From: Candidatus Thorarchaeota archaeon
GTDB lineage: Archaea > Asgardarchaeota > Thorarchaeia > Thorarchaeales > Thorarchaeaceae
NCBI GenBank assembly: GCA_016839605.1
Contig: JAEOTX010000044.1
Coordinates: 31,854 to 95,853 of the forward strand
Length of the DNA: 64,000 bases
Direction: 5' to 3'
Below, in pieces: positions 35,773 through 63,004 of the stretch. Position numbers and translations under genes: made by a program. The stretch's first letter is position 1, and each line of letters opens with the position of its first letter. The notes beneath the pieces are model-generated. The model searched no databases. It saw only the letters and a list, made by a program, of their open reading frames with translations, and had not been told where the DNA came from.

Positions 35773-35784
35773 GGTAGAACAAAG

Positions 35785-36702: not shown

Positions 36703-36713
36703 GAGGTCAGGAG

Positions 36714-37397: not shown

Positions 37398-37400
37398 ACA

Positions 37401-38336: not shown

Positions 38337-38350
38337 GCGGAGGAAAAAAG

Positions 38351-39757: not shown

Positions 39758-39833
39758 GGATTCAATGCTTCAAATCTGCTCATTGAGAGGTTTTATCTTA
39801 GTATGCCGCCTCGCCCGATTTGAGGAATCCTTT

Positions 39834-46041: not shown

Positions 46042-46755
46042 TTGAACAAAATGCCTTTCCCAGCAAGGTCTATGATTCGAATTCGAAGAGCTAATGGATA
46101 CAAGATATTAGCTATCTTGCTTTCCTCGTCAGTTCTGATCACCACAACAATTGCATGCTTTCCTATCGCCTCATACGATTTACCACCCGGGCCTCTGTTT
46201 GATGAATTTCTCCTGGAAGGAAAGTTCTTGGGCTATGATCTGTGGATTGATGCGGGTGTTTGGGTAGTTATTGAGGTGTTTTCTGAATTCAATGCGAGAA
46301 TCAGAATCGAAACTTGGGTTGAGAGTGAGAGGGCTGCATATATTCTGAGCGATTCAACATCCACGCATGAGGAGTTCACACTGGGAAAATCCTCCCAGGG
46401 ACAGTCTGTGTTTATCTTGATCATTCCTAGACTAGATACCAATGTCCGGGCTGAGATAATAGATTCCTCTTCCACTGCTACTAACAAAATAGATGTTCTC
46501 CCCACTCATTCCTGGTTTCTGATTCTATCATTTTCAGCTGTTTTTGTAGACGCTCATTTGTTTTCTGGCTGGCTGAGAGACACAACTGAACAGAAGAGAG
46601 AACGAAAGGTGCGAGCAAAGAAGAAGCGTTCTGATGATGAAGTCTGTATACCTTTGGAATATGTCCTGATTTCAAGGGTAAGAAGCCTGTATGCCAAGCG
46701 GGATAAATCCGATAGATACTGCTTATGCGAGCGCCTTAAACACACGAGAGGCTAA
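46042..46755 (+). CDS. hypothetical membrane protein (uncertain)
   Basis: 237-aa ORF with two hydrophobic segments (ILAILLSSSVLITTTIACF, WFLILSFSAVFV) and a basic tail. Its 3' end overlaps the convergent gene 46723-47367 by 33 nt. No family recognised. Confidence 0.35.
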   Translation: MNKMPFPARSMIRIRRANGYKILAILLSSSVLITTTIACFPIASYDLPPGPLFDEFLLEGKFLGYDLWIDAGVWVVIEVFSEFNARIRIETWVESERAAYILSDSTSTHEEFTLGKSSQGQSVFILIIPRLDTNVRAEIIDSSSTATNKIDVLPTHSWFLILSFSAVFVDAHLFSGWLRDTTEQKRERKVRAKKKRSDDEVCIPLEYVLISRVRSLYAKRDKSDRYCLCERLKHTRG

Positions 46756-47367
46756 AAACCAGCTAATGTCCCCAAGCATCTCGTGGGGCTGGTAATAGAT
46801 CGAGTTCTTGTCGTAAAGCAGTCGAACATTGGCTGGAAACTCCTCGTCTGCCTCGTCGAATATGAGCAGGACCTTCACTTTTGGTAGGAACTCTAATTCA
46901 AATCCAGCATCTCCATAGTCCACTCTCTTTGCACCAAGGCGTTCCAAGGTCTTGAATAGCTTCTCTTTCTTCTCAACGAACACTGAAGTCAGTGCTTTGA
47001 CATCCTCCTCATCAAAGGAGTATCTACAAGCCCAGGAACCTTGAAGTGCATTGTATTTGGACCACTCACCAGCAACACCCACATCTTTTGCCTTAGTGTA
47101 GTAGTAAAGGTGAGGGATTATGCGACTAGTATGGAATTCTTTGCCAGTCATTAGATCCTCCGTTTTTCCCGTTTCAAAGTTGATTCGAAGACCTAGAACG
47201 TCAAGAAACCCTCCCTCAAGGTCCAAGACTTTCTTTAGCTTGACAATTTCCTCCCCAAAATTGTCCCAGTTCCAGAATTCTGAGCTCTTATCGAAATCAT
47301 TGATATTGAACCTTGCCGCGAGTTCGCGCGCTTCAGCCATCCAATATTCTAGAATATCATCCGCCAT
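46723..47367 (-). CDS. hypothetical protein, DUF3786-like
   Basis: 214 aa. The C-terminal pattern YGDAGFELEFLPKVKVLLIFDEADEEFPANVRLLYDKNSIYYQPHE resembles my recollection of DUF3786, a family often found near corrinoid/CODH genes. The family call has low certainty. Confidence 0.55.
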   Translation of the reverse strand: MADDILEYWMAEARELAARFNINDFDKSSEFWNWDNFGEEIVKLKKVLDLEGGFLDVLGLRINFETGKTEDLMTGKEFHTSRIIPHLYYYTKAKDVGVAGEWSKYNALQGSWACRYSFDEEDVKALTSVFVEKKEKLFKTLERLGAKRVDYGDAGFELEFLPKVKVLLIFDEADEEFPANVRLLYDKNSIYYQPHEMLGDISWFLASRVFKALA

Positions 47368-47512: not shown

Positions 47513-48079
47513 ATGGTCACAGCACTCTTCAAAGTGATCTTGATGGGCGACGGATCTGTCGGAAAGACAAGTCTCAGGCGCCAGTACATGGGTGAAGGCT
47601 TTAGAGCCAACTACATGATCACCATAGGCGCTGACTTCGCAGTCAAGAAGATGACCCTTGAGGGAGGGCATGATGTCAGTATTCAAATTTGGGATCTTGC
47701 CGGGCAAGAGCACTTCAAGAATGTACGTTCTACGTTTTATAGGGGCGCACAGGGTGCACTAACCGTCTACTCCACTGTGGAACGCACTTCTTTTGACAAC
47801 ATCGGAAACTGGCTTGACGAATGCTGGAGCAATGCAGGCAAGAAGATTCCAATCGTTCTGATAGGCAATAAGATAGACCTCAGAGAGCAGTTCAAAGACA
47901 ATCCAGTGATGCAACAGACAATTGTGACCACAGAAGAAGGTCAGACTATGGCGAATCGAATAGCCGAACGCGGTGCACATGTCAGCTTCCTTGAGACTTC
48001 AGCCAAGACCGGCCTGAATGTCGAGGCATCTTTCCTCGAACTAGCTATTAAAATCCTAGAAGTGGGTGGTCTGACCTAA
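47513..48079 (+). CDS. Rab/Ras-like small GTPase
   Basis: 188 aa with G1 GDGSVGKTS, switch I ITIGADF, G3 WDLAGQE, G4 GNKIDL and G5 ETSAKTG. There is no C-terminal Cys (ends EVGGLT). Confidence 0.9.
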   Translation: MVTALFKVILMGDGSVGKTSLRRQYMGEGFRANYMITIGADFAVKKMTLEGGHDVSIQIWDLAGQEHFKNVRSTFYRGAQGALTVYSTVERTSFDNIGNWLDECWSNAGKKIPIVLIGNKIDLREQFKDNPVMQQTIVTTEEGQTMANRIAERGAHVSFLETSAKTGLNVEASFLELAIKILEVGGLT

Positions 48080-48106: not shown

Positions 48107-48505
48107 ATGGCATTAGGTGATTTTCTCTTTCCACATCTCGACCTGAAATTGGTGATAGCCCACTCCTTCGAGGTTGACATTGAGGCTGAGAAGGATAAGA
48201 AATCAAAGGAATATCAGGACCTCGCGGCAAGGGCGTCCTTTAGTAAGAGTGATTTCCAGAAGCTAGGCATCAAGGAAGGCGGTTCTGTCAACATCAAATC
48301 GAAGTCGGGCCAAGTCGTTGTGGGCGGATTCATTGATGAGCGGCTTGAAGATAGTGTGTCATCAATGCCTCGCGGACCTTGGGCACTATCTCTCGTAGCA
48401 GTTCCAACTGACGGTTCGCCTCCGCAATTGCATGGAATACAGGTCACAGCCACAAAATCGGACGATAAGATTACTTCTCTTGACTCTCTTTTGGAGGGCC
48501 CTTGA
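48107..48505 (+). CDS. FwdD-like molybdopterin-dinucleotide-binding (double-psi beta-barrel) domain protein
   Basis: 132 aa. ...FQKLGIKEGGSVNIKSKSGQVVV... and MPRGPWA resemble FwdD/FmdD and the C-terminal domain of Mo/W-bis-PGD enzymes. Starts 27 nt after the GTPase stop. Confidence 0.7.
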   Translation: MALGDFLFPHLDLKLVIAHSFEVDIEAEKDKKSKEYQDLAARASFSKSDFQKLGIKEGGSVNIKSKSGQVVVGGFIDERLEDSVSSMPRGPWALSLVAVPTDGSPPQLHGIQVTATKSDDKITSLDSLLEGP

Positions 48506-49853
48506 TTTTTGAAACAACTTTGTCCATTTGACCCCGCTCTACCTGCAGTGTCAATCTAGGACTTGATTTGAGCAGATTCAATGTACGCTGAGCGACCTTC
48601 ATCGCTTTATCTCGGACTCCATCCTCCGATTCCCATCCCTGTCCTTCTCGTATATTGACCCGTGCCCTCTCAGCAGCTAAGACAGTGATTTCCCTTTCAA
48701 AGAGTCCGCTTTTTGGAGGGTCATTGCCAATGACCGCTTCAAAGAACAGCCTTCTAGCCTTCTCCCACTCACGAACTTTCTCAAGCTCCTCAACATTGTA
48801 GCCATCACGTTTTGCTTCCAGAACATCATATGGGCAAGAATGCTCGCATGCTCCGCAGTAGAGGCAGTGCTCGGATATGTCGATTTTCTCTTCAGTTCCT
48901 GTCGGATGGATTGCTTTGACTGGACATATGTTGAAGCAGTTGTGACAGCCAACTGGATCACATTTGTCACGCCTTACTATGACTACTTCTCCTGAGAATG
49001 GCTTAGTGACCTTAAGAGCATCATAAGGACAGACCTGAGCGCATAGGCCACACTTCACGCAGGTCTCATCATTGTGGTGCAGCTCGCCTGATATCTTAGG
49101 ATCTTTAATGGTCCTGGGACTGGACTTGGTACATTCGACAGTTATAGCTTCATCTGGACATATCTTTGCACACAATCCACAGTAGTCGCATTCTTCGTCT
49201 ATGGCTCTGATACTTACTGCTGGTCTGAAATCAGGCGGTTCAGCTGATTCCGACCAGAAGATTTTGATTGCTTCAGGACAAAGGAGTTCGCACAACCCAC
49301 AAAGTGAACACTTGTCCTCGTCTATCTTTATTGTGCCTTCAGCTGATTCTTCACCCTCATACTTGACGAGGTCCTTCTTCCATTCGACTTTGACTTCAGC
49401 GTCGAGTGACTCAGTTGGGCAGACCTTTGCACAAAGTAAGCAGGGCGCACACTTCTCCTCATCAATTGTGTGGACTCCGTCGATGTTGACAAAGTCGTTG
49501 ATAGCTCCTTCTCCCTCATATTTGGCATCAAAGGCATTGAAAATGCAGGAAGAGTCGCAGAGTCCACAGAAGGTGCATAGCTCAGGATCGACATTCACGA
49601 GCGGAGCTCCCTCAATCCTTCCTGCTGCTGTTTCCTGAACAGGTCCAAGGGTAATTGCCTCCCAGGGGCAAGGTAGGCATAGACTGCAACCCACGCATTT
49701 GTCAATTGCATGGTCAAGAGTCTTCTTGAGCAACGAGGTTTTCCAGGCAAATTTCACCTTGCCATCTTCAATGTCCATGGACACGACAGGCTTCTCGCCA
49801 ACTGTAATATTATGTCGCTCCATGATGTTAGCCTCCGACTGCCTCTCTTGCAT
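48471..49853 (-). CDS. polyferredoxin (about eight [4Fe-4S] binding motifs)
   Basis: 460 aa with repeated CxxCxxCxxxCP motifs, e.g. CTFCGLCDSSC, CAPCLLCAKVCP, CSLCGLCELLCP, CDYCGLCAKICP, CVKCGLCAQVCP and CLYCGACEHSCP. Confidence 0.85.
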   Translation of the reverse strand: MQERQSEANIMERHNITVGEKPVVSMDIEDGKVKFAWKTSLLKKTLDHAIDKCVGCSLCLPCPWEAITLGPVQETAAGRIEGAPLVNVDPELCTFCGLCDSSCIFNAFDAKYEGEGAINDFVNIDGVHTIDEEKCAPCLLCAKVCPTESLDAEVKVEWKKDLVKYEGEESAEGTIKIDEDKCSLCGLCELLCPEAIKIFWSESAEPPDFRPAVSIRAIDEECDYCGLCAKICPDEAITVECTKSSPRTIKDPKISGELHHNDETCVKCGLCAQVCPYDALKVTKPFSGEVVIVRRDKCDPVGCHNCFNICPVKAIHPTGTEEKIDISEHCLYCGACEHSCPYDVLEAKRDGYNVEELEKVREWEKARRLFFEAVIGNDPPKSGLFEREITVLAAERARVNIREGQGWESEDGVRDKAMKVAQRTLNLLKSSPRLTLQVERGQMDKVVSKIKGPPKESQEK

Positions 49854-52278
49854 CCTGGGGCGGTTTGACAGTAGGCTTTTCTACTATTTCTCTGCCTAAT
49901 GGTCCAAGACGTGTTATTCTATTTACAAATCTCGTTACTTGCTCTGCGAAACTATCAGCTTCAGATGCGGAAGCACTACCAAAGTAAAGGCGTCCCCCAT
50001 CGATTCCTGAAGCCCTGAGCAACTCCCTTACCTTGCCCATCCTGTTCTGAGCATATCCGGCACCTGACCGATAGTGACAATCTTGAATGTGACATCCCAT
50101 GACTGCCACGCCATCAGCGCCCTCTGCAAACGCAGTCATTATAGTTACCACATTCAGACGTCCAGTACATGGAACCTGTATCGGTATCATATTCGGTGGA
50201 TAGGTAATCCTAGCAGTCCCGGCTCTATCTGCAGCCCCATAGGCACACCATCGACAAAGATATCCAACGATAGCTGGCTTCTGAGGATTATATTCCACCG
50301 CGGCCTTTGTTGCACTCAATAGCTGTTCATTCGTTAGGCATGGAAGATCAAGAGCCCCAGATGGGCACGCGGCCGCACATGATCCACATCCCCTGCAAGC
50401 AGCCATGTTAATCAATGGATGCTTTTCGTCATTGAAAGAAATCGCATCGGGAGTACAGTTCTGTTCGCACAAGCGGCAGCTGATGCATAGAGATGGATCA
50501 AGAGATGGAACACATGCCTCTGTAATCACCTTGCCACTAGTGAGCAAGGTCTTGACCTTTGATGCAGCAAGTCCGGCATGGGCTACAGTGTCAGAGATGT
50601 CCTTTGGACCCTGAGCTACTCCTGATAGAAAGACGCCCTTCGTCGGGGTTGTGCTTGGTCCAAGTTTGGGGTGTTGCTCAAGGAAGAAGCCGTTCTCATC
50701 TAATGGTACTTTGAGTAGCCTCGACAGAGCGATATTACTTGGCTCTGCATCCATTCCAACCATTAGGACAACAAGATCCACATCCATCTCGAGTTGCCGT
50801 CTTAGTGTTATGTCCTCTGCACGAATGCTTGTCTGACCAGTGACCGGATCTAGGACAACCTCACCGATCGCTCCTCGGACGAAATTCACCTTGTATTCCT
50901 TTGCCGCCCGGACTTGGAGTTCTTCATGTCCCTTTCCAAAGGTCCTTAAGTCGGAATGAAAGACGAAGGCCTCGATCTCAGGTATCTGCTGTTTGATTTG
51001 AACTACTTCTTTGACAGACGCTGTGCAACAAGCTCTACTGCAATACGGTCGTCCGAAGCGCTCTGAACGACTGCCTACACAAGGCACGAATACGACTCTT
51101 CTAGGCACTTCGCCGCTTGAAGGTCTGACAAGCTTTCCGCCACTCGGCCCTCCTGGGTTCAATAGCCTCTCGAGCTCCAATGATGTTATGACATCAGGAT
51201 TCTCCCCGTATCCAAGTTCCTCGACAATTCGTGGGTCAAATGGCATAAACCCTGTTGCAACAACAATAGCGCCTACGGTGACTGTTTCAGTAGACTCCTC
51301 TTCCTCATATCGAAGAGATTTTGGTTCGCATACCCCTGCACAGGATTGGCATCCAATACAGTTCTGAGTGTCTATGTAAGGTGCGAGAGGCACCAAGTCA
51401 ATCAATGGCCTCACCATAGCTTTTCTCTTTCCGAGCCCGTAATTGTACTCATCAGGGACCTCTACAGGACATACCTCTATACACTTGTTGCAGCCAGTGC
51501 AGGACTCTAGGTCAACAAATCTGGGTCGTTTTCTCAATGTCACATTGTAATGACCAACCGCACCTCTCACGTCAATGATGTCGGTCAAGGTCGATATCTG
51601 GATATTCTCATGCCTTGCGACCCTTGCCATCATAGGACCAAGAATACAGATTCCACAGTCAAATGTTGGGAACAGCTTGTCCCACTTTGCCATGTGACCT
51701 CCGAGGAATCCTTCCCTCTCTACTACAACCGTGCTTATGCCAGAATCAGCAAGCTCGAGCGCAGTGGTTAGTCCCGCAACACCGCCACCAATCACTAGCG
51801 CTTTCTGAGTCACAGGCACATCATGTGTGGTGATTGGATAGGATTTGTCTACTTTGGCTAATCCAGTGTCTATAATAGCTGCAGCTTTGGCAGTTGCTAC
51901 TTCTGGGTCATCATAATGTACCCAACTGCATTGCTCTCTGATGTTTGCCATATGGAGGTGTCCTGGGTTTAGTCCCGCCTCCTTCACAGCGTCAGAGAAC
52001 AGTTCCCTATGAAGGAGAGGCGAACATGCAGCAATAACAGCTTTGCCCACCTTGCTTTTCTTGATAGACTTAATCAGATCTACTACTCCTTGTTCTGAAC
52101 AAAAATGGTCGTTTACCTCAACAAGCGAGATTCCCTTGGCCTCGTATTTTGCCTTCAATGAGTCAACATCGATGGTGTCTGCGATATTTGAGCCGCATCG
52201 ACAAAGGTAGACTGCAGTCTTGTCAGTCTTTTTCTCTTTCTTCTTCTTGCTTTTCTTTTTGCGACTCACAATTTCCAC
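49828..52278 (-). CDS. hdrA: HdrA-like flavoprotein fused to a C-terminal MvhD domain
   Basis: 816 aa with the HdrA N-terminal pattern VYLCRCGSNIADTIDV ... AACSP and FAD motif VIGGGVAGLTTALELA, plus ferredoxin motifs. The C-terminal IVGYLCRWCAYGAADRAG ... PCTGR ... MGCHIQDCHY is MvhD-like. Confidence 0.9.
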   Translation of the reverse strand: MEIVSRKKKSKKKKEKKTDKTAVYLCRCGSNIADTIDVDSLKAKYEAKGISLVEVNDHFCSEQGVVDLIKSIKKSKVGKAVIAACSPLLHRELFSDAVKEAGLNPGHLHMANIREQCSWVHYDDPEVATAKAAAIIDTGLAKVDKSYPITTHDVPVTQKALVIGGGVAGLTTALELADSGISTVVVEREGFLGGHMAKWDKLFPTFDCGICILGPMMARVARHENIQISTLTDIIDVRGAVGHYNVTLRKRPRFVDLESCTGCNKCIEVCPVEVPDEYNYGLGKRKAMVRPLIDLVPLAPYIDTQNCIGCQSCAGVCEPKSLRYEEEESTETVTVGAIVVATGFMPFDPRIVEELGYGENPDVITSLELERLLNPGGPSGGKLVRPSSGEVPRRVVFVPCVGSRSERFGRPYCSRACCTASVKEVVQIKQQIPEIEAFVFHSDLRTFGKGHEELQVRAAKEYKVNFVRGAIGEVVLDPVTGQTSIRAEDITLRRQLEMDVDLVVLMVGMDAEPSNIALSRLLKVPLDENGFFLEQHPKLGPSTTPTKGVFLSGVAQGPKDISDTVAHAGLAASKVKTLLTSGKVITEACVPSLDPSLCISCRLCEQNCTPDAISFNDEKHPLINMAACRGCGSCAAACPSGALDLPCLTNEQLLSATKAAVEYNPQKPAIVGYLCRWCAYGAADRAGTARITYPPNMIPIQVPCTGRLNVVTIMTAFAEGADGVAVMGCHIQDCHYRSGAGYAQNRMGKVRELLRASGIDGGRLYFGSASASEADSFAEQVTRFVNRITRLGPLGREIVEKPTVKPPQDAREAVGG

Positions 52279-52546
52279 CTAGGTGTGACAAAGACCCTTG
52301 GGCCAGGTGTTATCTGATTGTTTGTGTTACTTCGGTCTTTCAACTTGATGAGCTTCTTTCTATCCAGTATAAGTGTGAGCATTCAGGATTCAGAGCCAAC
52401 ATTCTACGATAAGAAGACTGTGATATCTGGAGAAATGGACTTTCCAATGAGCCCTGTGCCATACCGCATCATTCTTTTTAGGAGAAAACTGGATTCCCAC
52501 AGGCAATGGCTAGTGATAACACACCCGCCAAGGGAGACCCGAAGAC

Positions 52547-53005
52547 TTGAAACTCAATCCCATGGAGCTTTACAATCTATTACCCAAGACAAACTGCCGT
52601 CTATGCGAACCAAAGACCTGCATGGCTTTTGCGACTAAGATGGCGCTTGGTGACGTTCTCCCTGATGACTGCCCCCCTCTCCTGGAAGAGGGATTTGAGA
52701 AGAACCTTGAGAAGCTAAGAGAACTTGTCGCTCCGATGCAATCAGCAGAGGAAACTGGAATAAAACTGGATGATTCCAAGTGCACTGGTTGTGGCAACTG
52801 TGTTGTTGTCTGTCCAGTAGATGTAGCCGTCGAGCCTGAAACAGGTCATGGTAAGGCTGGCAAAAGTCGTGACACAGTCTTCATTGTTGAGAACGGGATT
52901 TCAAAGATAATCAATCTGGAGAAGTGCAGGCGATTTCCCCCTGATCGGCTCAATTGCAGAGTCTGTGAACAGTATTGCTGCACAGATGCCATCGAGATTT
53001 GGTAG
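52547..53005 (+). CDS. Fe-S protein: CdhE/AcsC-type N-terminal [4Fe-4S] domain fused to a 2x[4Fe-4S] ferredoxin-like domain
   Basis: 152 aa. LLPKTNCRLCEPKTCMAFATKMA...C has the same Cys spacing as the CdhE N-terminus in this window (LLPGTNCEECGEANCMAFATKLA...C). It is followed by CTGCGNCVVVCP and a second Cys group. The start is TTG 52547 or ATG 52562. Confidence 0.75.
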   Translation: MKLNPMELYNLLPKTNCRLCEPKTCMAFATKMALGDVLPDDCPPLLEEGFEKNLEKLRELVAPMQSAEETGIKLDDSKCTGCGNCVVVCPVDVAVEPETGHGKAGKSRDTVFIVENGISKIINLEKCRRFPPDRLNCRVCEQYCCTDAIEIW

Positions 53006-53013
53006 GTGATACT

Positions 53014-54249
53014 ATGGAAGATATCGTCTGCAGTGGATGCGCGTTACTTTGTGATGATGTGGCCGCAGAGGTGAAAGGTGAGGAAATTAGCTCATTGGGC
53101 CTCTGTAGACTCGGTCATCAACACTTGATCTCCTCAATAAAGATGCACGACGCGAAATCTGTGGTCCGCGATACCGGTACAGAAAAGACGGTCTCTATAG
53201 GTGTGGCACTGAAGAAAGCATCAGAGATTCTGCTCACTGCAAAGCGTCCTCTTCTTTATGGGTGGTCTCACTCAACAGATGAAACCATCACGAAAGGAAT
53301 TGAGCTGGCAAAGTCCATAGGAGCCGCTTTCGATACTACCGCTAGTCTTGGATTGGTTCAGGCACTCATCCATAAGCTTCACTCCAAGCAGCTGGAAATC
53401 GATCTTGATTATGTCCGAAATAATGGTGAGTTCATTCTGTATTGGGGATCTAATCCAACAGAGAGCAGTCATCGACATCCCAGTAAGTTTGCAGTCTTGC
53501 CGCGTGGCGAAAACATACCTGAGGGAATCGAGAGTAGGACTATCGGAGTCGTGGATGTTCGAAATACGGAGACAATGAAGATGGCCAATCATCGACTGAT
53601 TATCCCTCCCGGGGCAGACGCAGAGTTACTTGATGCATTGTCATCTGATATTTTAGGAAAGAGTCCTATCACTGGAGATGTAGCTGGTATTTCTGCTCAG
53701 GAGCTGCTTGGGCTTGTTCGCAATGTAAAGAAATCCGACTGCACAGTGATATTCTATGGCAGCGGATTGATTAACTCAGGAAATACAGAGGCGAATCTTT
53801 CTGGGCTCCAAACACTAATCGAGTCTGTGAGGGAGGCTGGGAAGCAGGCATTCGCTTTGCCCATGGCAACAGAACCCAACATCATGGGTGTCACTAAGAA
53901 CGCAGTTGAAGCAGGAGATGGGGATACACTTCGTAGGCTTGTGGCTGGAGAGTTCGAAGCTGCACTCATAGTTGGCGACGATTCACTTGTAGAGCTGCCT
54001 GGACCTGCAGCTAAGGCATTCGCTAGCATTCCACTGATTTACGTTGGTCCACCTGGCGGCATCACCGATGCCAAAGCAAGAGTTTCTATTCACGTTGCAG
54101 ACAGTATGCTATTGGGATCTGGCAAAATGCATCGGCTCGATTTTGTTGAGGTTCCGTACAAGCAGTGGAGCGCTCATCCAAAGCAACCTGCAGCTGAATT
54201 TGACGTGATATCAAGACTACATGAACTTGTGACTAAGGGGTTGAAATAG
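53014..54249 (+). CDS. FwdB/FmdB-like molybdopterin oxidoreductase family protein without an evident Mo/W-ligand cysteine
   Basis: About 411 aa. The N-terminus IVCSGCALLCDDV...C matches FwdB. Only one further Cys is present (KKSDCTVIFYGSG). ATG at 53014 is preferred over 52975. Confidence 0.8.
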   Translation: MEDIVCSGCALLCDDVAAEVKGEEISSLGLCRLGHQHLISSIKMHDAKSVVRDTGTEKTVSIGVALKKASEILLTAKRPLLYGWSHSTDETITKGIELAKSIGAAFDTTASLGLVQALIHKLHSKQLEIDLDYVRNNGEFILYWGSNPTESSHRHPSKFAVLPRGENIPEGIESRTIGVVDVRNTETMKMANHRLIIPPGADAELLDALSSDILGKSPITGDVAGISAQELLGLVRNVKKSDCTVIFYGSGLINSGNTEANLSGLQTLIESVREAGKQAFALPMATEPNIMGVTKNAVEAGDGDTLRRLVAGEFEAALIVGDDSLVELPGPAAKAFASIPLIYVGPPGGITDAKARVSIHVADSMLLGSGKMHRLDFVEVPYKQWSAHPKQPAAEFDVISRLHELVTKGLK

Positions 54250-55229: not shown

Positions 55230-57578
55230 ATGCATATGAAAAAGAAAGCACACTTCAAAGCTGATGAAGCGAGAACCGATTTAGGTGTCTTCAAAGGTCT
55301 TGAGGTTCGAATCGGGCAGATCGTGGATGACGAATGGGATGAACCAATGGGTCCAACCCCAATGCCGAGTCCAACCGGTCTCCGATCTTGGGACCACAAG
55401 CTCTTGACGAAATATACGCCATCCTACATGCCTTATTGTCAGGTCTGTTGTCTATGTACATTTGGCAAATGTGACCTCTCCGGAGACAAGCGGGGTGCCT
55501 GTGGGATTGATATGAAGGGGCAACAGGCAAGAATTGTGCTCGCAGCAGCCAATATAGGCAATGCAGCACACTTGGCTCATGCAAGACACTTGGTTGATCA
55601 CTTGATTGATGAGTTCGGTCCTCGAACTGATCTTATTCAAGGACCTGGCACCGAGATACACGCACCTGTTTCTCGTTTGGTGACGGGAACGAGACCAAGA
55701 ACTCTTGAGGATGCCAGCATAATTCTTGACTATTGTGAGAGTCAACTAGCTCACACACTCTCAGCCACACACACGGGCCAAGAGGGGAGCTGGTTAGACT
55801 TCGAGAGTAAGGTTCTCCATGTTGGGATGATAGATCAAGTAAGCATGGAGATTGCAGACCTAGTTCAGATTTCGACACTTGGCTTTCCGAAAGCCGATCC
55901 AGAAGCGCCGCTTGTTGACTCTGGCATAGGCATGATGGATCTAAACAAGGCAATCATCCTGACTATTGGTCACAACATTGTACCAGCAGCCTCGATAACC
56001 GACTATATTACTGAGAAGAAACTTGGAGCCAAAGTTGAGGTAGGTGGCATGTGCTGCACTGCATGGGATATCACACGCCGTGATCCAAGTGCCAAGGTGA
56101 TTGGGCCAATCTCTTGGCAGCTTAGATATATTCGAAGCGGCAAGGCTGATGTTGTAGTAGTGGACGAGCAATGTGTCCGGACTGATGTGGTTTCTGAGGC
56201 TCAGAAAGTAAAGGCTCCAGTTATTTCAACGAGTGACAAAGCAGTAATGGGACTGCCGGACAGATCTGATGATGCAATTGACTCGATAGTTGATGAACTT
56301 GTATCAGGAAAGATACCTGGTGCATATATCTCCGATCACCATAAGGTTGGAGCGGTTGCAACCAAAGTAGCCCTTGCTGTCATGCCAAAAAGAAGGAAGA
56401 TGAAATTCTTCCCGACAAAGAAACAGATTCAGAAGATGGCTCAAGAATGTAAGAAATGTAGTGAATGCATTCGGTCGTGTCCAAATGACCAGCCAGTTAT
56501 GGAGGCTGTCTTAGCGGCTCAGACGGGGAATTTCGAGCCACTACGTGATGTCTATCGGAACTGTATTGGATGTGCACGGTGCGAATCTGCATGTCCCAAC
56601 GATTATGACTTACATAGTTGGATGGTTGTTGCAGCTGAAGCTGACTGCGAAGCTGAAACCTACAAGGTTCGAACAGGAAGGGGTGCAATTCAGGATACCG
56701 AAATCCGCAGCGTTGGCCAGCCCATCGTCTTCGGAGAGATTCCTGGAGTAATTGCACATGTTGGTTGTGCTAATTATCCTGGTGGAGGCGCTGATATCCA
56801 CGAAATGGCCGAAGAATTCGCCAAACGAAGGTATATCATAGTGACTTCAGGATGTGCAGCAATATCAGCTGGTCATGTAAAAGATGAAAATGGCCAATCC
56901 ATATATGAGAGACGTGGTGGCGAATTCGATGCAGGCTGCGTTCTCAATGTTGGTTCATGTGTATCCAATCCTCACATAGCTGGCGCTGCGATTAAAATCG
57001 CTGCGATTTTCGCCAAGAGAAATCTACGAGCCAACTACGCTGAAATTGCTGACTACATTCACAATCGGGTTGGTGCTGTAGGTATCTCTTGGGGCGCGAT
57101 GTCGCAGAAGGCTGCATCAATTGCAGCTGGTTTCTGGCGACTCGGAGTTCCAGTGATTGTTGGCCCTCATGGTTCCAAGTACCGAAGAATGTTGCTTGGT
57201 AAAGCTGAGGAAGAACGAGCTTGGACTGTCTATGATGCACGTACTGGAGATCGTGTAGTGACTGCGCCTGGTCCCGAACACCTATTCTATGCCGCTGAAA
57301 CTGTCGCAGAAGCTAATGTGATGACAGCAAAGCTCTGTCTTAGGCCCAATGATACAAGTAGGGGGCGCTCCATCAAACTGAGCCACTACATTGACATCCA
57401 TGAGAATTCATACGGCTTTTTCCCGGAGGATGTTTGGAACTACATCCGTCGTGAATCGGATATTCCAATCACATTGAAGGACAAGATTTTGGCTCAAATG
57501 AAGGAGAACAAATGGAAGGAAAGAACAATCCCAGATCCGACGCTTCTCAAGGAGCTAGTCATGGGAGGTGGCAAATAA
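55230..57578 (+). CDS. cdhA: acetyl-CoA decarbonylase/synthase complex subunit alpha (CODH catalytic subunit)
   Basis: 782 aa with N-terminal Cys motifs (YCQVCCLCTFGKCDL), an internal ferredoxin insert (CSECIRSCP, CARCESACP) and C-cluster region motifs. Confidence 0.95.
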   Translation: MHMKKKAHFKADEARTDLGVFKGLEVRIGQIVDDEWDEPMGPTPMPSPTGLRSWDHKLLTKYTPSYMPYCQVCCLCTFGKCDLSGDKRGACGIDMKGQQARIVLAAANIGNAAHLAHARHLVDHLIDEFGPRTDLIQGPGTEIHAPVSRLVTGTRPRTLEDASIILDYCESQLAHTLSATHTGQEGSWLDFESKVLHVGMIDQVSMEIADLVQISTLGFPKADPEAPLVDSGIGMMDLNKAIILTIGHNIVPAASITDYITEKKLGAKVEVGGMCCTAWDITRRDPSAKVIGPISWQLRYIRSGKADVVVVDEQCVRTDVVSEAQKVKAPVISTSDKAVMGLPDRSDDAIDSIVDELVSGKIPGAYISDHHKVGAVATKVALAVMPKRRKMKFFPTKKQIQKMAQECKKCSECIRSCPNDQPVMEAVLAAQTGNFEPLRDVYRNCIGCARCESACPNDYDLHSWMVVAAEADCEAETYKVRTGRGAIQDTEIRSVGQPIVFGEIPGVIAHVGCANYPGGGADIHEMAEEFAKRRYIIVTSGCAAISAGHVKDENGQSIYERRGGEFDAGCVLNVGSCVSNPHIAGAAIKIAAIFAKRNLRANYAEIADYIHNRVGAVGISWGAMSQKAASIAAGFWRLGVPVIVGPHGSKYRRMLLGKAEEERAWTVYDARTGDRVVTAPGPEHLFYAAETVAEANVMTAKLCLRPNDTSRGRSIKLSHYIDIHENSYGFFPEDVWNYIRRESDIPITLKDKILAQMKENKWKERTIPDPTLLKELVMGGGK

Positions 57579-58126
57579 TGGTGATGAGACCAGTACCCTG
57601 GCAGACAGGAGAGATTTGCGGCCCTGACAGTGCAAAATCACTCAACAAGGCCACCCAGCTAAAAAGAGTCTTCACGAAATCAAAGAAACCCCTATTGATT
57701 GTGGGATCTGATGCAGTTGGCATGCCGCATGGGAAGGGTGACATGATTGACTATGCAATAGCCCTTTCAGAGGCTGGTAAGATACCTGTTGTTGCTACTG
57801 GAGGCGCAATCAAGGCCTTTATTGAGAAGGGTTTTGAAGGCGCAAAATCAAAAGGCGCAATGGAATTGGCGAACTACCTTCAGGATGAATCGTGGCCAGG
57901 TCCCCATGGAAAGGGACCTCACGATTTGATTCTGGTTTATGGTATCCCATACTACATGCAGTGGACGCTGCTATCTGCAGTTATGAACTTTGGGACTCAT
58001 CTGGCAAAGGTTACCCTGGGGCGTTATTATCAACCACATGCAGATTGGTCATTCCCAAACATGAAGGAGAAGCAATGGCACAAAACTCTGGATGAAATTC
58101 TGGAGTTTGTAGGAGGAGGTAAGTAA
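57578..58126 (+). CDS. cdhB: acetyl-CoA decarbonylase/synthase complex subunit epsilon
   Basis: About 182 aa from an ATG overlapping the cdhA stop (TAATG). PWQTGEICGP, KKPLLIVGSD and YYQPHADWSFPN fit CdhB. Confidence 0.85.
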   Translation: MVMRPVPWQTGEICGPDSAKSLNKATQLKRVFTKSKKPLLIVGSDAVGMPHGKGDMIDYAIALSEAGKIPVVATGGAIKAFIEKGFEGAKSKGAMELANYLQDESWPGPHGKGPHDLILVYGIPYYMQWTLLSAVMNFGTHLAKVTLGRYYQPHADWSFPNMKEKQWHKTLDEILEFVGGGK

Positions 58127-58127
58127 C

Positions 58128-59531
58128 ATGTCATTTGAAGACATTCCAGTAGATGTAGGCGTAGTATACGAAGGTGAGCGAGTCCGAGGAAAGGACATGT
58201 ATGTAGAGCTCGGCGGTCCAAAAATGGAACAGAAATTCGAACTTGCTCTGGCACGAGAAATGGGCGACATCGAAGATGAGAAAGTCACTGTCATCGGACC
58301 CGACTTGAAGGACATGGAGGAAGGGAGCTATCATCCATTTGGCATCCTAATAGAGGTGGCTGGAAAGGAGATAGAACCTGACCTTGAAGGCGTCATTGAA
58401 AGGCGCATTCACGAATATGTGAACTTCGTTGAAGGAATGATGCACCTGAACCAGAGATACGACATCTGGATTCGGCTCAACAAGAGGTCTTTCGAAAAGG
58501 GATTCAATACCTTTGAGTTTCTGGGTAAGGTCCTAGTTCGGCTCTTCAAGAGTGAGATGAATATCATTGAGAAAATACAGGTTACGTTCTTCACAGACCC
58601 TGAGAAGATAGCCGAACGATATGATGAGGCCATAAACAGATACAACGAGAGAGATGCTCGTGCAAGAGGACTCAGTGATCCAGATGTAGACACATTCTAC
58701 GGATGCTCATTGTGTCAGTCTTTCGCTCCAACTCACATCTGTGTGATAACACCGCAGAGATATGCAAATTGCGGAGCAATAAGTTGGTTCGATGGTCGTG
58801 CAGCCGCAAGAGTTGACCCTAAAGGGCCCCTCTATGCAATCTCGAAAGGTGACACGATAGATGAGTTTTCTGGTGAGTACACAGGTGTGAATCAGATCAG
58901 CGCGGAGAAATCGCTTGGTAAGGTCACCTCAGTAGCTCTCTACAGTGCCTTTGACAAGCCACACACAAGCTGTGGTTGCTTTGAGGCAATCGCGTTTGTG
59001 ATTCCTGAGGTAGACGGTCTTGGAGTTGTCCACAGAGACTTCAAGGGTGAAACAGTGAACGGACTGCCCTTTTCAAGCATGGCTGACTCCACGGCTGGAG
59101 GCCGACAGGTGCCTGGTTTCCATGGGCTCTCAATAGAGTACATGCGTTCACCTCGTTTCCTACAGGTTGACGGTGGCTATGATAGAGTCGTATGGATGCC
59201 TGACTCAGTGAAACAACGAATCTATGAGTTCATGCCTGAAGATATCAGAGACAAGATCCCGACCGAGAACGATGTCATGACCATTGGCGATCTCAAGACC
59301 TTCCTCAAGGAGAAGAACCATCCAGTTGTGGAACGTTGGGTGGAGATTGAGGAGGACGAGACAGCTCTGGCAGAGGTTTCTGATACTGGCGATTATGTTT
59401 CTGTACCTGGTGAAATGACTGCCATGGTTGGTGGTATTGGTGGCGGCCTTGAAATCATCTTCAAGAATGCCAAAATATACGCTGAGAAGGTCATTATCCG
59501 CAAGACAGGGAAGGGTGGAAAGAAGAAATGA
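58128..59531 (+). CDS. cdhC: acetyl-CoA decarbonylase/synthase complex subunit beta (acetyl-CoA synthase, A-cluster)
   Basis: 467 aa with the A-cluster Cys region CSLCQSFAPTHICVITPQRYANCGAISWFDGRAA and HTSCGCFE. Confidence 0.95.
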   Translation: MSFEDIPVDVGVVYEGERVRGKDMYVELGGPKMEQKFELALAREMGDIEDEKVTVIGPDLKDMEEGSYHPFGILIEVAGKEIEPDLEGVIERRIHEYVNFVEGMMHLNQRYDIWIRLNKRSFEKGFNTFEFLGKVLVRLFKSEMNIIEKIQVTFFTDPEKIAERYDEAINRYNERDARARGLSDPDVDTFYGCSLCQSFAPTHICVITPQRYANCGAISWFDGRAAARVDPKGPLYAISKGDTIDEFSGEYTGVNQISAEKSLGKVTSVALYSAFDKPHTSCGCFEAIAFVIPEVDGLGVVHRDFKGETVNGLPFSSMADSTAGGRQVPGFHGLSIEYMRSPRFLQVDGGYDRVVWMPDSVKQRIYEFMPEDIRDKIPTENDVMTIGDLKTFLKEKNHPVVERWVEIEEDETALAEVSDTGDYVSVPGEMTAMVGGIGGGLEIIFKNAKIYAEKVIIRKTGKGGKKK

Positions 59532-60721
59532 CGTCCCATGAGGAAGGAAGAGGGCAGTCGCTAGACGACATCTTCGGTGAATTCGCCGAGTTGGAGCTGG
59601 AGGATGTCACGATACAGGTTGACGAACTCAAGCTTGCTCTCCGTCCCATGGTCCAACGGATAGCTCAGGCTGCAGCAAAGGCTGCAATTGAGAGGCCAAA
59701 GTCCCTCATACCCACGCAGCTCAAGGCTCCCCTTGGTGAGTATCCCGGTGTCATTCGGGAGATTACTATTGGGGCCACGAAGAAAGAGGGAGGCTCAAGG
59801 AGCAATACCGTGACCATTGGTGGTCATACTGCACCAGCATGGGACCTGTTTCAATCACCACCGAAGAATCCACCAATCATAGCGGCTGATGTCTTTGATA
59901 TGCCTATTCCACTGGCAAAGGCGGTGAAGACACATTACAGAGAAGTTCTTGAGGATCCCGCAGAGTGGGCGAAGCTCTGTGTGGACAAGTTCGGAGCTGA
60001 TTTGATAACAATTCATCTCATCAGTACCGATAGACAACTCGGAGACACATCACCTGCAAAAGCCGCAAAGACTGTCGAGGAGGTTTTACAAGCAGTAAAG
60101 GTTCCTGTGCTTATTGGTTCTGCAGGAGACCCTGAGAAAGACGGTCCTGTCCTAGCAAAGGCTGCAGAGGTGTGTGAGGGTGAACGGACCCTGCTATGTT
60201 CGGCTACAATCGATGTCTATGAACCCGTTGCAGTAGCTGCAAAGGAGCATGACCAGATTGTCTTGTCTTGGACCTCACTCGACATCAATGATCAGAAGGA
60301 ACTGAACCGAAGGCTTATCGAATGGGTAACGCCCGATCAGATAGTCATTGATCCTACAACAGCTGCTCTTGGATATGGTCTTGAATATGCCTTCACCATG
60401 ATGCAGAGGATGCGTCTGGCTGGGCTCTTAGGCGACAGCGAGCTACAATACCCAATCAGTTCTGGTACTACAAATGCCTGGGCTGCTAGAGAGGCATGGC
60501 TAAAGGCACCTGAACTTGGTCCGAGAGAACTTCGTGGACCAATCTGGGAGAGTGTGACTGCGTTGTCACTTCTGCTGGCAGGAAACGACCTCTTCATGAT
60601 GATGCATCCTGCAGCGATGAAGACAGTCCATGATCTTATTGAGTGGCTTCGAGAGAGGCGGCCGATACCAGTCGAGGAATACGCAGACTGGACATCAATC
60701 GAAATACCGGAGGGGATCTAA
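59528..60721 (+). CDS. cdhD: acetyl-CoA decarbonylase/synthase complex subunit delta (corrinoid Fe-S protein small subunit)
   Basis: 397 aa. Overlaps cdhC by 4 nt. TIM-barrel-like CdhD pattern and the canonical position before cdhE. Confidence 0.9.
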   Translation: MTSHEEGRGQSLDDIFGEFAELELEDVTIQVDELKLALRPMVQRIAQAAAKAAIERPKSLIPTQLKAPLGEYPGVIREITIGATKKEGGSRSNTVTIGGHTAPAWDLFQSPPKNPPIIAADVFDMPIPLAKAVKTHYREVLEDPAEWAKLCVDKFGADLITIHLISTDRQLGDTSPAKAAKTVEEVLQAVKVPVLIGSAGDPEKDGPVLAKAAEVCEGERTLLCSATIDVYEPVAVAAKEHDQIVLSWTSLDINDQKELNRRLIEWVTPDQIVIDPTTAALGYGLEYAFTMMQRMRLAGLLGDSELQYPISSGTTNAWAAREAWLKAPELGPRELRGPIWESVTALSLLLAGNDLFMMMHPAAMKTVHDLIEWLRERRPIPVEEYADWTSIEIPEGI

Positions 60722-62137
60722 ATGGTCAAACTTCCAGGTCCATTGGACATCTACCCTCTTTTGCCTGGTACAAACTGCGAGGAGTGCGGAGAGGCCAACT
60801 GCATGGCTTTTGCAACGAAGCTCGCCGAATACACGGTGAAGCTTGCTGCTTGTGCTCCTCTCTACAAAGAGGCTCAGTATGTCAAGAAGCTGACCAAGCT
60901 AGAGGATCTAATTCGTCCTCCAGTCAGAGAAGTTGTGATTGGCACAGGTGAAAAAGCTGCTTCGATAGGTGGAAAGCTAGTCCTGTATAGACATGATCTT
61001 AGATACTCGAATCCGATTGCATTCTTTGTTGATGTAGCTGACACACTTGAGGGCGATGCCCTCTCCCAGAGAGTCAAGGCTATTGAAGACTGGACGTACA
61101 TGTACATTGGTCAGAATCTACGGTTAGATGGAGTAGCACTACGAGGTGTATCACAAGATCCGCAGACTTTTGCTAAGGCTGCAAAGAAATTGTCTGAGCT
61201 CACTGACTGGCCAATTATCCTATGCTCGCTAAATTCTGAGATGCTGGCCGCTGCAGCTAACGCAATCGCTGATAAGCGACCTTTGCTCTATGCAGCGACA
61301 CTGGATACATGGTCCGATGTTGGAGATATTGCAGTCAAGCACAATCTCCCCTTGGTGGCTTATGCACCAAGCGGGTTAGACGACATTGCAACGCTTGTCA
61401 ATACTCTGAGAGCCATGGGAGTAGAGGAAATTGTACTCGATCCAGGCACAGCTTCAAGAGCTGGTCTTGGTACCACTGTTGACAGCTTTACGCAGCTCAG
61501 GAGAGCTGCTACACTAGAGGAGAACGAACTAGTTGGGTATCCACTACTTGCGACTCCAATCTCAGTATGGGCGGACCATAAGGAGGGTGCTGCACCAGAG
61601 TTAACTAAATGGGACGAGGTCCTCACTGCGGCAGCAATGATAGTCCGTTACTCTGATGCAATCGTTGTCCATAGTTTGGACATGTGGACCAATCTGCCAC
61701 TAACCTTTCTACGAAGCAATCTCTACACCGATCCAGTCAAGCCCGTAGCCGTTGAGGCCGGACTACAGGAATTCGGTAAGGTTGATGCAGACTCTCCAGT
61801 GATGTATACAACAAACTTTGCGCTTACCTACTTTACTGTAGAGAGCGACATCAAACAGGCTGGCGTCAATGCCTATCTCGTGGTGGTTGATACGGAGGGA
61901 ATGAGTGTCCAATCCGCAGTTGCAGGTAGAAGACTGACTGCAGAGAAAGTGGCGGAAAGCCTAGAGGAATACAAGGTGTCTGACAAGGTCAAACACAAGG
62001 TTCTCATCAGTCCAGGAATGGCCGCGAGAATTAGTGGTGAAACCGAAGAGGTCTCTGGTTGGACTGTCAAAGTAGGTCCCCAGGACTCCAGCGGAATACC
62101 CAAGTATCTCCAATCAGGTAAATGGAAAGAAGAGTAA
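60722..62137 (+). CDS. cdhE: acetyl-CoA decarbonylase/synthase complex subunit gamma (corrinoid Fe-S protein large subunit)
   Basis: 471 aa with the N-terminal [4Fe-4S] motif LLPGTNCEECGEANCMAFATKLA. Starts immediately after the cdhD stop. Confidence 0.9.
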   Translation: MVKLPGPLDIYPLLPGTNCEECGEANCMAFATKLAEYTVKLAACAPLYKEAQYVKKLTKLEDLIRPPVREVVIGTGEKAASIGGKLVLYRHDLRYSNPIAFFVDVADTLEGDALSQRVKAIEDWTYMYIGQNLRLDGVALRGVSQDPQTFAKAAKKLSELTDWPIILCSLNSEMLAAAANAIADKRPLLYAATLDTWSDVGDIAVKHNLPLVAYAPSGLDDIATLVNTLRAMGVEEIVLDPGTASRAGLGTTVDSFTQLRRAATLEENELVGYPLLATPISVWADHKEGAAPELTKWDEVLTAAAMIVRYSDAIVVHSLDMWTNLPLTFLRSNLYTDPVKPVAVEAGLQEFGKVDADSPVMYTTNFALTYFTVESDIKQAGVNAYLVVVDTEGMSVQSAVAGRRLTAEKVAESLEEYKVSDKVKHKVLISPGMAARISGETEEVSGWTVKVGPQDSSGIPKYLQSGKWKEE

Positions 62138-62176: not shown

Positions 62177-62200
62177 TCTTTCCTATTGAGAGTAAGAAGA

Positions 62201-63004
62201 ATGAAAGAACGTCTAGTGATATCTGTGTCTGGCAAGGGTGGAGTCGGTAAGACCACTACTTCAGGACTCCTCTCCAGAATAATTGCAGAGCAGACCCAAA
62301 GGTCACTTCTCCTGGTTGATGCAGATCCAGTCATGAATCTTCCTCGCGCCTTGGGAGTTGATGTTCCAGCATCGGTGGGAGAGATAGCTTCCCAAATGAG
62401 GAAGAAAATTGATGATGGAACACTTCCAGCATCTGCCGCGAAACAAGATATTCTGGAAGGAGAAATCTTTGAAGCACTCATTGAGGGGGACCGTTTTGAT
62501 TTCTTAGCTATGGGGCGAACAGAAGGTGAAGGTTGCTACTGTTATGTCAACAGAATATTAACACAGATTCTTGACACACTCACGATGAATTATGAGATTA
62601 CTCTTCTTGATATGACCGCAGGTCTTGAGCACTTCAGTCGGCGCACTGACAGGAATGTAGACATCCTCATTATTGTGATTGATTCCTCAAGAGCCGCTTT
62701 TGAAGCAGCACTGCGAATAAGAGACCTCGCCAAAGAGGTTCATATTGACTTCAAGAAGCTAGTAGTGATTGGAAATCGTATTCCCGCCAATCTTGTTGAT
62801 GCGGTCTCACAAGGGCTTGAAGAGAATGACCTCTTTCTAGCCGGAATGATTCCTAATGATGATGAGGTCGCGAAGCTCAATTACATGGGGAAACCGGTTT
62901 TCGACCTGCCAGATGATTCACCTGCATTTCAGGCCGTTGAGGGAATTGCAGAGAAGCTGGGTCTTCTCAGTGAAGTGACATTGTTGAAATTGTTGGGCCA
63001 GTAA
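62201..63004 (+). CDS. cooC: CooC/AcsF-type nickel-insertion ATPase (copy 2)
   Basis: About 267 aa from the ATG at 62201, with SGKGGVGKTT and CxC motif GEGCYCY. Diverged from copy 1. Confidence 0.85.
   Translation: MKERLVISVSGKGGVGKTTTSGLLSRIIAEQTQRSLLLVDADPVMNLPRALGVDVPASVGEIASQMRKKIDDGTLPASAAKQDILEGEIFEALIEGDRFDFLAMGRTEGEGCYCYVNRILTQILDTLTMNYEITLLDMTAGLEHFSRRTDRNVDILIIVIDSSRAAFEAALRIRDLAKEVHIDFKKLVVIGNRIPANLVDAVSQGLEENDLFLAGMIPNDDEVAKLNYMGKPVFDLPDDSPAFQAVEGIAEKLGLLSEVTLLKLLGQ

Follow-up and report, generated by a model that had tools for sequence, protein, structure and literature searches.

Two adjacent genes in a 64,000-nucleotide (nt) window of Candidatus Thorarchaeota DNA (contig JAEOTX010000044.1, positions 31,854 to 95,853 of the forward strand) encode a small Fe-S protein of the FwdG2 type and what appears, from sequence comparisons, to be a specialised paralog of FwdB in which the catalytic triad of this formylmethanofuran dehydrogenase subunit has been lost. 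The pair lies directly upstream of a cooC gene and of cdhABCDE, the genes for CO dehydrogenase/acetyl-CoA synthase (CODH/ACS), and next to genes for an HdrA2/MvhD flavoprotein, a polyferredoxin and an FwdD-like protein, partners that had no part in the reasoning of an earlier note on this DNA. A redox or scaffolding role seems more likely than formylmethanofuran dehydrogenase activity, because the Mo/W ligand and the residues equivalent to His119 and Arg288 of FwdB are lost, the protein scores under the FwdB cut-off and the pair forms a tight operon with cooC and cdh. The earlier note had come to the same general view, and this part of it stands; its choice of the corrinoid Fe-S protein as the target of the pair does not. 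We tentatively favour the reading that the two proteins are a non-catalytic Fwd remnant that relays electrons through Fe-S clusters within, or acts as a scaffold for, an HdrA2-polyferredoxin complex, possibly or even probably one that exchanges electrons with CODH/ACS.

The FwdB-like protein matched the FwdB/FmdB family TIGR03129 with an E-value of 1.4e-74 and 251.1 bits, under the curated cut-off of 327.8 bits. It had no match in Pfam, including PF00384, which several of its Cys-bearing relatives do match. Its best solved relative in a phmmer search of the Protein Data Bank (PDB) was FwdB of Methanothermobacter wolfeii (5t5i_B, 9.8e-44). An AlphaFold2 (AF2) model with a predicted local distance difference test score (pLDDT) of 82.6 and a predicted TM-score of 0.83 was matched by Foldseek to FwdB (5t5m_B, TM 0.84), NuoG (0.71) and FhcB (0.59), and the fold of MopB domains I-III is present in it together with an N-terminal four-cysteine [4Fe-4S] site. 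Cysteines occur at positions 6, 9, 13, 31 and 243 only, as the earlier note had read from the sequence. The first four pair with the cluster cysteines C9, C12, C16 and C35 of FwdB and are conserved in 49-50 of 50 close Thorarchaeota homologues.

A comparison of Fhc and Fwd has shown that Cys118, His119 and Arg288 define a working FwdB active site (PMC6926001). In the phmmer alignment, TASVC118H119 of the M. wolfeii protein pairs with TASLG113L114 and PMR288GH with PMA285TE, and the replacement of the three residues by Gly113, Leu114 and Ala285 was also found in two MAFFT alignments. The segment DTTASLGLVQA, placed at the metal ligand in the earlier note, is the right region according to the alignment with 5t5i_B and holds no Cys, Sec or Asp; besides the ligand cysteine, whose absence had been proposed, His119 and Arg288 proved to be missing. 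Among the 50 homologues, the ligand column holds Gly in 48, Ala in one and Ser in one, the column after it varies between P, L, M and A, and the Arg288 column is occupied by F, A, Y, W or S. The same alignment has 60 further columns that are invariant, and purifying selection acts elsewhere in the protein. Out of 61 positions conserved in 16 FwdB sequences with the Cys-His-Arg triad, 35 are kept, compared with 39-53 in Cys-bearing relatives, at least four of which are linked to Hdr genes. The motifs that are kept include WGxNP, VVDxR, FYGxG, N289, G292 and the R374/D376 pair near the C-terminus. The most conserved block in the Thorarchaeota family (residues 143-194), HRHPSRFAVLPRG...VVDVR.TETMKMANHR, contains residues 154-192, for which the AF2 model has its lowest confidence (pLDDT below 50); this suggests a region that may depend on a partner or a ligand for its order. 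The Fe-S ligands of both proteins of the pair and a large, surface-like block are under strong constraint; the former active-site columns drift. We infer that the FwdB-like protein lacks the pterin cofactor.

Other accounts of the altered site were rejected. Selenocysteine or a sequencing error at the ligand position does not fit a GGA codon for Gly113, the lack of an in-frame TGA and Gly in 48 of the 50 homologues. Cys243 is unlikely to act as an alternative metal ligand since its place is taken by F, G or Y in three distant Cys-less representatives (P0121-P0123). The gene is not a pseudogene, as the open reading frame (ORF) is intact in 34 species and the 60 columns are invariant. Nor does the protein belong with FhcB: it has lost the triad, yet it keeps the Fe-S domain and an FwdD-like partner, and its structural match to FhcB is lower than that to FwdB.

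In the small Fe-S protein, residues 12-44 matched PF04060 (6.1e-11), in addition to matches with Fer4 families. The spacing of its N-terminal cysteines, C17-x2-C20-x4-C25-x16-C42, is that of the N-terminus of CdhE, and a ferredoxin module is fused to this domain, both as described in the earlier note. The ferredoxin part carries C79/82/85/89 and C127/137/140/144, the second motif being a C-x9-C-x2-C-x3-C variant. The 12 cluster cysteines show no variation among 41 homologues, and the protein is predicted to hold three [4Fe-4S] clusters. Searches of the PDB by phmmer matched the C-terminal half to FwdG chains (9sfi_U, 4.9e-09; 5t5i_G, 1.8e-08) and the N-terminal half to the N-terminus of the corrinoid Fe-S protein (9fzy_F, 8.2e-07). 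The AF2 model (pLDDT 89.3) gave the same picture in Foldseek, with 5t5i_G at TMt 0.86 and a root-mean-square deviation of 1.5 A, and with 9fzy_F and 4c1n_G at 37-38% identity for the N-terminal domain. Against the family model of the corrinoid Fe-S protein (NF003195), residues 1-64 matched positions 1-60 of 450 only (60.9 bits, cut-off 306), and against RnfB (TIGR01944) the protein reached 46.1 bits with a cut-off of 68.7.

The earlier note had regarded this protein as a chimera derived from CdhE, a view that the relatives do not bear out. The family is found in Thor-, Hod-, Hermod- and Helarchaeota, Bathyarchaeota, Thermoproteota and cultured Methanosarcinales (Methanosalsum zhilinae, Methanolobus and Methanohalobium). 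The fusion of PF04060 to an FwdG domain stands beside FwdB homologues with no cdh gene nearby in Methanosalsum zhilinae, Helarchaeota, Baldrarchaeia and a metagenome-assembled genome (MAG) of Thermoprotei. It is also present in a Thorarchaeota fwdG-fwdB-fwdD-fwdA operon, so the alternative named in the earlier note, a standard subunit of an Fwd enzyme, applies in part. In the N-terminal domain, 29-33 of 52-54 residues are identical to those of its relatives in other phyla and 22 of 44 to those of CdhE of the same genome. The domain is nearer to the foreign FwdG2 proteins than to its own CdhE and is therefore part of an old fusion, and a recent copy of the CdhE N-terminus was rejected. The PF04060-FwdG architecture, here called FwdG2, is old and widespread, and it is the standard form across Asgard archaea, Bathyarchaeota, Thermoproteota and Methanosarcinales.

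The coordinates of the locus are collected in Table 1. The start of the FwdB-like gene is the ATG at 53014, 8 nt past the stop of the small gene and preceded by GGTGAT; the longest-ORF start, a TTG at 52975, was rejected because the homologues all align from the ATG. The overlap of the two genes reported in the earlier note was an artefact of ORF calling, and the gap between them is 8-10 nt in 30 related loci. The 3-nt gap from the FwdB-like stop to cooC, followed by cdhA to cdhE, was seen again here, and 179 nt separate cooC1 from cdhA. The best database matches of both proteins of the pair were Thorarchaeota MAG proteins with 50-100% identity.

Table 1. Features of the module and the neighbouring CODH/ACS genes, with window coordinates and median identity to the window protein across Thorarchaeota loci.
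Feature	Position	Strand	Evidence or remark	Median identity
DUF3786 protein, upstream neighbour of the module	46723..47367	-	Pfam PF12654, 1.4e-25	65%
FwdD-like protein (molybdopterin-dinucleotide-binding "cap" domain)	48107..48505	+	PF01568, 9.6e-08	57%
Polyferredoxin (FwdF/MvhB-like)	48471..49853	-	33 Cys, six classical CxxCxxCxxxC motifs	69%
HdrA2-type flavoprotein fused to an MvhD domain	49828..52278	-	divergent from the FwdG2/FwdB pair	74%
Divergent intergenic region, 268 nt, between hdrA2 and the small Fe-S gene	52279..52546		sequence read
FwdG2-type Fe-S protein, 152 aa, TTG start	52547..53005	+	Pfam, NCBIfam, phmmer, AF2/Foldseek	86%
FwdB-like paralog, 411 aa, ATG start	53014..54249	+	family, structure and residue comparisons	55%
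Residues 154-192 of the FwdB-like paralog	53473..53589	+	pLDDT below 50
CooC-type maturation ATPase (CooC1), P-loop and C118-M-C120	54253..55050	+	PF01656 CbiA, 4.8e-17	77%
cdhA (CODH alpha subunit)	55230..57578	+	TIGR00314, 1072 bits, cut-off 781	86%
cdhB (epsilon subunit), approximate start overlapping the cdhA stop	57578..58126	+	TIGR00315, 123 bits, cut-off 101
cdhC (acetyl-CoA synthase beta subunit)	58128..59531	+	TIGR00316, 641 bits, cut-off 356
cdhD (corrinoid protein small subunit)	59528..60721	+	TIGR00381, 441 bits, cut-off 253
cdhE (corrinoid Fe-S protein large subunit, own PF04060-type N-terminus)	60722..62137	+	NF003195, 547 bits, cut-off 306
Second CooC-type ATPase (CooC2), C117-Y-C119 motif	62186..63004	+	NCBIfam MinD/ParA-family matches

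The divergently transcribed partner of the pair had a full-length match of 886 bits to NCBIfam HdrA2 (cut-off 1100), and its residues 670-792 matched PF02662 (FlpD/MvhD, 5.2e-43). The polyferredoxin, whose gene always adjoins that of HdrA2 in related loci, had many Fer4 matches in Pfam and scored 211 bits against NCBIfam FwdF, under the cut-off of 375. Convergent with it lies the FwdD-like gene; its product scored 51.8 bits against NCBIfam FwdD, under the cut-off of 175, and its phmmer matches in the PDB were FwdD chains (2ki8_A, 8rja_D and 5t5i_D). All five cdh products were above their NCBIfam cut-offs. Promoters for both hdrA2 and the small Fe-S gene presumably lie in the stretch that separates them, and this divergent layout was found in all Thorarchaeota loci and in the more distant loci L035, L036, L041-L046 and L049. 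No fwdA, fwdC or canonical fwdB was found among the window ORFs scanned, which were part of those in the window.

The same gene order is shared by 34 Thorarchaeota species genomes wherever the contig extends far enough: the DUF3786 gene, the FwdD-like gene, the leftward HdrA2/MvhD-polyferredoxin pair, and then the small Fe-S gene, the FwdB-like gene, cooC, cdhABCDE and a second cooC in the other direction. This arrangement is not due to chance. One Thorarchaeota genome has been reported to lack cdh (PMC6737245). The operon is tight: in 29 Thorarchaeota loci, the FwdB-like gene and cooC are separated by -4 to 34 nt. A cooC gene follows the Cys-less FwdB gene in every Thorarchaeota locus extending past it and also in L035 and L046; cdh genes follow that cooC in Thorarchaeota and in L046, and the CooC2 gene is kept after cdhE in the Thorarchaeota loci that reach so far. 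HdrA2 and the polyferredoxin accompany the pair in every Thorarchaeota locus whose contig reaches them. The FwdD-like gene is kept in all Thorarchaeota loci that extend far enough; it is conserved in 27 Thorarchaeota loci and occurs also in L035, L036, L041, L042, L043, L046 and L049. Within the Thorarchaeota cluster, conservation is lowest, and to a similar degree, for the FwdB-like and FwdD-like genes, which encode the two proteins of the former catalytic unit. The DUF3786 protein, encoded at the same relative place in 21 loci, may be part of the module; a literature search returned nothing useful on its function. The two CooC paralogs of the window, with their CMC and CYC motifs, flank cdhABCDE, and CooC-type ATPases are encoded with the Hdr-Fwd module also in L035 and L036, where it has no adjacent cdh gene.

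Beyond Thorarchaeota, the module is found with and without cdh genes and in forms that differ at the ligand site. In Methanosalsum zhilinae (L043), the polyferredoxin and HdrA/MvhD genes are divergent from those for the PF04060-ferredoxin, FwdB and FwdD, and the FwdB has Cys-Gln and a Val in place of the Arg. The same module with additional FwdA, HdrC and HdrB genes is present in Baldrarchaeia (L042, Cys-Gln). A Thermoprotei MAG (L038-40) has a same-strand cluster of small Fe-S protein, FwdB, HdrA, polyferredoxin, HdrC and HdrB with Cys-His, and L041 and L036 have the divergent form, also with Cys-His. Cys-less forms occur in Bathyarchaeota (L044/45, short contigs with a fragment of HdrA2 upstream of the pair), in L035, where only cooC follows the module, and in Hodarchaeota (L046), where the module is followed by cooC, two inserted genes and cdhABCD. 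In Thermoproteota, L049 (1-11727) encodes a Cys-His FwdB and has cdhDCBA on the other side, directly beside the FwdD-like gene, which is followed by polyferredoxin-HdrA2 and FwdG2-FwdB; this is an independent and differently arranged adjacency. HdrA2 and polyferredoxin are both encoded beside the pair in L035, L036, L041, L042, L043, L046 and L049, and HdrA2 alone in L044/45, while the complete set of FwdG2, FwdB, HdrA/MvhD, polyferredoxin and FwdD-like genes was found in the window, L041, L042, L043, L046 and L049. The deeply conserved partner of the pair is thus HdrA2 with the polyferredoxin, not cdh, and the cdh linkage is lineage-specific.

In a rough neighbour-joining tree, the Cys-less clade of Thor- and Hodarchaeota stood beside Hdr-linked Cys-His forms and well apart from P0459, a 434-aa Cys-Gln FwdB from a Thorarchaeota-labelled MAG whose operon encodes PF04060-FwdG, FwdB, FwdD and FwdA. 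A more plausible Fwd enzyme is therefore encoded elsewhere in at least some Thorarchaeota MAGs. The paralog lost the triad in Thor- and Hodarchaeota. The main Asgard FwdB clade (P0458, P0459 and P0482, from Loki-, Thor- and Hodarchaeota) has Cys-Gln for Cys-His and Gly for Arg288. The Helarchaeota-type "FwdB" clade (P0399, P0136 and P0406), named FwdB by PGAP and passing PF00384, has no conserved Cys at the ligand column; P0406 is labelled as coming from a bacterial MAG. Some Bathyarchaeota homologues also have no conserved Cys there. Judging by these sequences and by loci L047 and L048, Asgard Fwd active sites may differ widely from that of the methanogen enzyme.

Known systems resemble the Thorarchaeota module in part. 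It shares with Fwd of M. wolfeii (PDB: 5T5I) the FwdB and FwdG folds, the phmmer matches to FwdD, the N-terminal four-cysteine site in FwdB and the division of a formate-dehydrogenase-like unit into B and D proteins. It differs in the replaced triad, the score below the family cut-off, the lack of FwdA and FwdC in the cluster and the extra N-terminal [4Fe-4S] domain of the FwdG-like protein. The closest layout is that of the hdrA-pfd and fwdG2B2D2 genes of Methanosarcinales, which we observed in Methanosalsum zhilinae and compared for Methanosarcina itself by gene names (PMC2838876): polyferredoxin and HdrA/MvhD on one strand, PF04060-FwdG and FwdB on the other, and an FwdD-like gene nearby, placed after fwdB in M. 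zhilinae and beside the polyferredoxin gene in the window. Unlike the window protein, FwdB2 of Methanosarcinales keeps the ligand Cys and is not encoded beside cooC or cdh. In M. acetivorans, where the genes are named hdrA1-pfd and fwdG2B2D2, an fwdB2 reporter was constitutively expressed and the function is unknown (PMC2838876).

For the loss of the site itself there are precedents. FhcB (PDB: 6S6Y) is an FwdB homologue without Cys118, His119 and Arg288 that acts as a scaffold (PMC6926001); it has, however, neither the N-terminal Fe-S domain, which was lost, nor an FwdD partner, both of which the Thorarchaeota protein retains. The "Molybdop" protein of type II HdrA clusters is non-catalytic and encoded in an Hdr gene cluster (PMC12054007), and like NuoG/Nqo3 it is a MopB fold without the cofactor ligand that still sits in an electron-transfer complex. 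These proteins differ from the window protein in their FdhA-type rather than FwdB ancestry, in their partners (FdhB and Nuo subunits) and in having no link to CODH/ACS. In methanogen Hdr-Fmd/Fwd supercomplexes, polyferredoxins physically wire bifurcating HdrA to FwdG/FwdB (PDB: 7BKB; PMC13518236). The module encodes a set of proteins (HdrA, polyferredoxin, FwdG, FwdB and FwdD) that corresponds to these complexes, but the terminal catalytic site is gone in Thorarchaeota and the neighbouring enzyme is CODH/ACS. The small protein shares the PF04060 [4Fe-4S] domain with CdhE/AcsC and RnfB, the latter having a comparable layout of PF04060 and ferredoxin, and differs from CdhE/AcsC in having no corrinoid-binding or TIM-barrel domain. 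RnfB has an N-terminal membrane anchor, for which a PF04060 domain beginning at residue 12 leaves no room.

On the reading that we favour, the Thorarchaeota pair would be the local version of an archaeal module composed of an FwdD-like cap, a polyferredoxin, HdrA2-MvhD, a three-cluster FwdG2 and an FwdB paralog. In relatives that keep the Cys, the module would be an Hdr-coupled CO2 reductase or formylmethanofuran dehydrogenase, in which low-potential electrons leave the bifurcating FAD of HdrA, pass the polyferredoxin and FwdG and reach the FwdB cluster and then the tungsto- or molybdopterin. The Thor/Hodarchaeota form has lost the triad and kept the N-terminal [4Fe-4S] site and the FwdD-like partner, and its operon is joined to cooC-cdhABCDE-cooC. 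This FwdB' would no longer reduce CO2; FwdG2' and FwdB', for which four [4Fe-4S] clusters are predicted in total, would be left as a structural unit that also relays electrons, holding the HdrA2-polyferredoxin complex together and probably passing low-potential electrons to, or taking them from, CODH/ACS. The pair would be physically associated with HdrA2 and the polyferredoxin. Electron flow to CODH/ACS is proposed because the operon fusion with cooC and cdh is phylum-wide, because the adjacency of module and cdh recurs in other arrangements (L046 and L049) and because the CO2 reductions catalysed by CODH/ACS and Fwd have similarly low potentials. Going further, it is conceivable but rather doubtful that Thor- and Hodarchaeota possess a ferredoxin-independent supercomplex in which HdrA2 bifurcation is wired to CODH/ACS through the polyferredoxin, FwdG2' and a dead FwdB'/FwdD'; in that case the methanogen-type Hdr-Fwd machine would have been exapted from CO2-to-formyl to CO2-to-CO reduction.

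Several observations weigh against a relay to CODH/ACS. Since Fwd and Cdh are both part of the Wood-Ljungdahl pathway, their adjacency may reflect clustering at the level of the pathway, which is a sufficient alternative; L049 shows that adjacency to cdh needs no loss of the Cys; with 179 nt between cooC1 and cdhA, cdh may have its own promoter; and the scan, among the window ORFs that it covered, revealed neither HdrBC nor another high-potential acceptor module. The first three agree with the explanation that the pair is a mere structural leftover of the HdrA2-polyferredoxin complex and that its position beside cooC and cdh reflects co-regulation within the Wood-Ljungdahl pathway, with no direct link to CODH/ACS. 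The deep conservation of the HdrA2/polyferredoxin linkage and the lineage-specific nature of the cdh linkage fit this explanation as well. We nonetheless consider it unlikely, as the tight spacing to cooC is conserved across the phylum, the adjacency of module and cdh recurs in two different arrangements, and the conservation of 12 cluster cysteines in the small protein and four in FwdB' argues for a working electron path over mere bulk.

A further objection concerns the cofactor: the FwdD-like cap and many nucleotide-binding-type motifs are kept, which is compatible with a pterin still being bound. FwdB' and FwdD' would then hold a bis-pyranopterin without a protein ligand, or with a non-standard one, and catalyse another redox reaction fed by HdrA2 and the polyferredoxin. 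This would account for the retention of the cap in all Thorarchaeota loci extending far enough, for the many invariant motifs of FwdB domains II and III in the Thorarchaeota family and for the low AF2 confidence of the most conserved block, expected if a ligand or partner orders it; a MopB enzyme that has no protein ligand is known in arsenite oxidase, AioA (PMC10100899). We judge such an activity improbable because all three catalytic residues are gone, their columns vary, with a bulky F, Y or W often at the Arg288 column, the cluster is least conserved at its FwdB-like and FwdD-like genes, and PF00384 is not matched, unlike in several Cys-bearing relatives. Cofactor-less MopB proteins such as NuoG in complex I can keep both the Fe-S cluster and domain IV, and NuoG was the second-best structural match. 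Finally, the idea that the pair is an accessory of CdhDE, its CdhE-like domain docking as the CdhE N-terminus does and delivering electrons for the (re)activation of Co(II) to Co(I), draws on the shared operon with cooC-cdhABCDE and on the true homology of the domain to the N-terminus of the corrinoid Fe-S protein large subunit (PF04060, 9fzy_F and 4c1n_G), but is very improbable given that the same fusion occurs in fwd and hdr clusters away from cdh and in the Thorarchaeota fwdG-B-D-A operon, that the domain is nearer to those FwdG2 proteins than to CdhE of its own genome, that RACo activators (a [2Fe-2S] domain with an ASKHA-type ATPase domain) work through an ATPase domain and neither protein matches an ATPase or [2Fe-2S] domain, and that it offers no explanation for the conserved presence of HdrA2, the polyferredoxin and the FwdD-like protein as partners.

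Members of the FwdB family without the Cys have been noted in general (PMC10100899). In the limited literature searched, we found no description of the module, of the loss of the triad in Thor- and Hodarchaeota or of the fusion with cooC-cdh. The window gene is annotated by JGI as "formylmethanofuran dehydrogenase subunit B", and metabolic reconstructions of Asgard archaea should not infer methyl-branch reduction of CO2 from this paralog. The source of electrons low enough in potential for the Asgard CODH/ACS is an open point in lifestyle models based on hydrogen and syntrophy, and the link at gene level between HdrA2-polyferredoxin and cooC-cdh through a putatively dead Fwd module provides a concrete candidate. 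In Methanosarcinales, fwdG2B2D2 and hdrA-pfd, which are uncharacterised, also gain a context from the module.

Other genes of the window deserve mention. A Ras-family small GTPase (Pfam, 4.9e-48) is encoded at 47513-48079 (+), between the DUF3786 and FwdD-like genes, a spot where it was detected in only seven Thorarchaeota loci. A protein with an Arf-family domain is encoded at 5645-6544 (+), and both are typical eukaryote-like signature proteins of Asgard archaea. Positions 34876-40646 (+) encode a MetF-like reductase, an MtrH-like protein, MtrA, MtrH, methanogenesis marker 14 and CofE. The MtrAH remnant of Thorarchaeia is already known (PMC9635834); marker 14, beside a corrinoid methyltransferase, may be an activase. 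A radical SAM protein with an HMPTM zinc-ribbon domain, encoded at 16447-18105 (+), is consistent with methanopterin biosynthesis in this organism.

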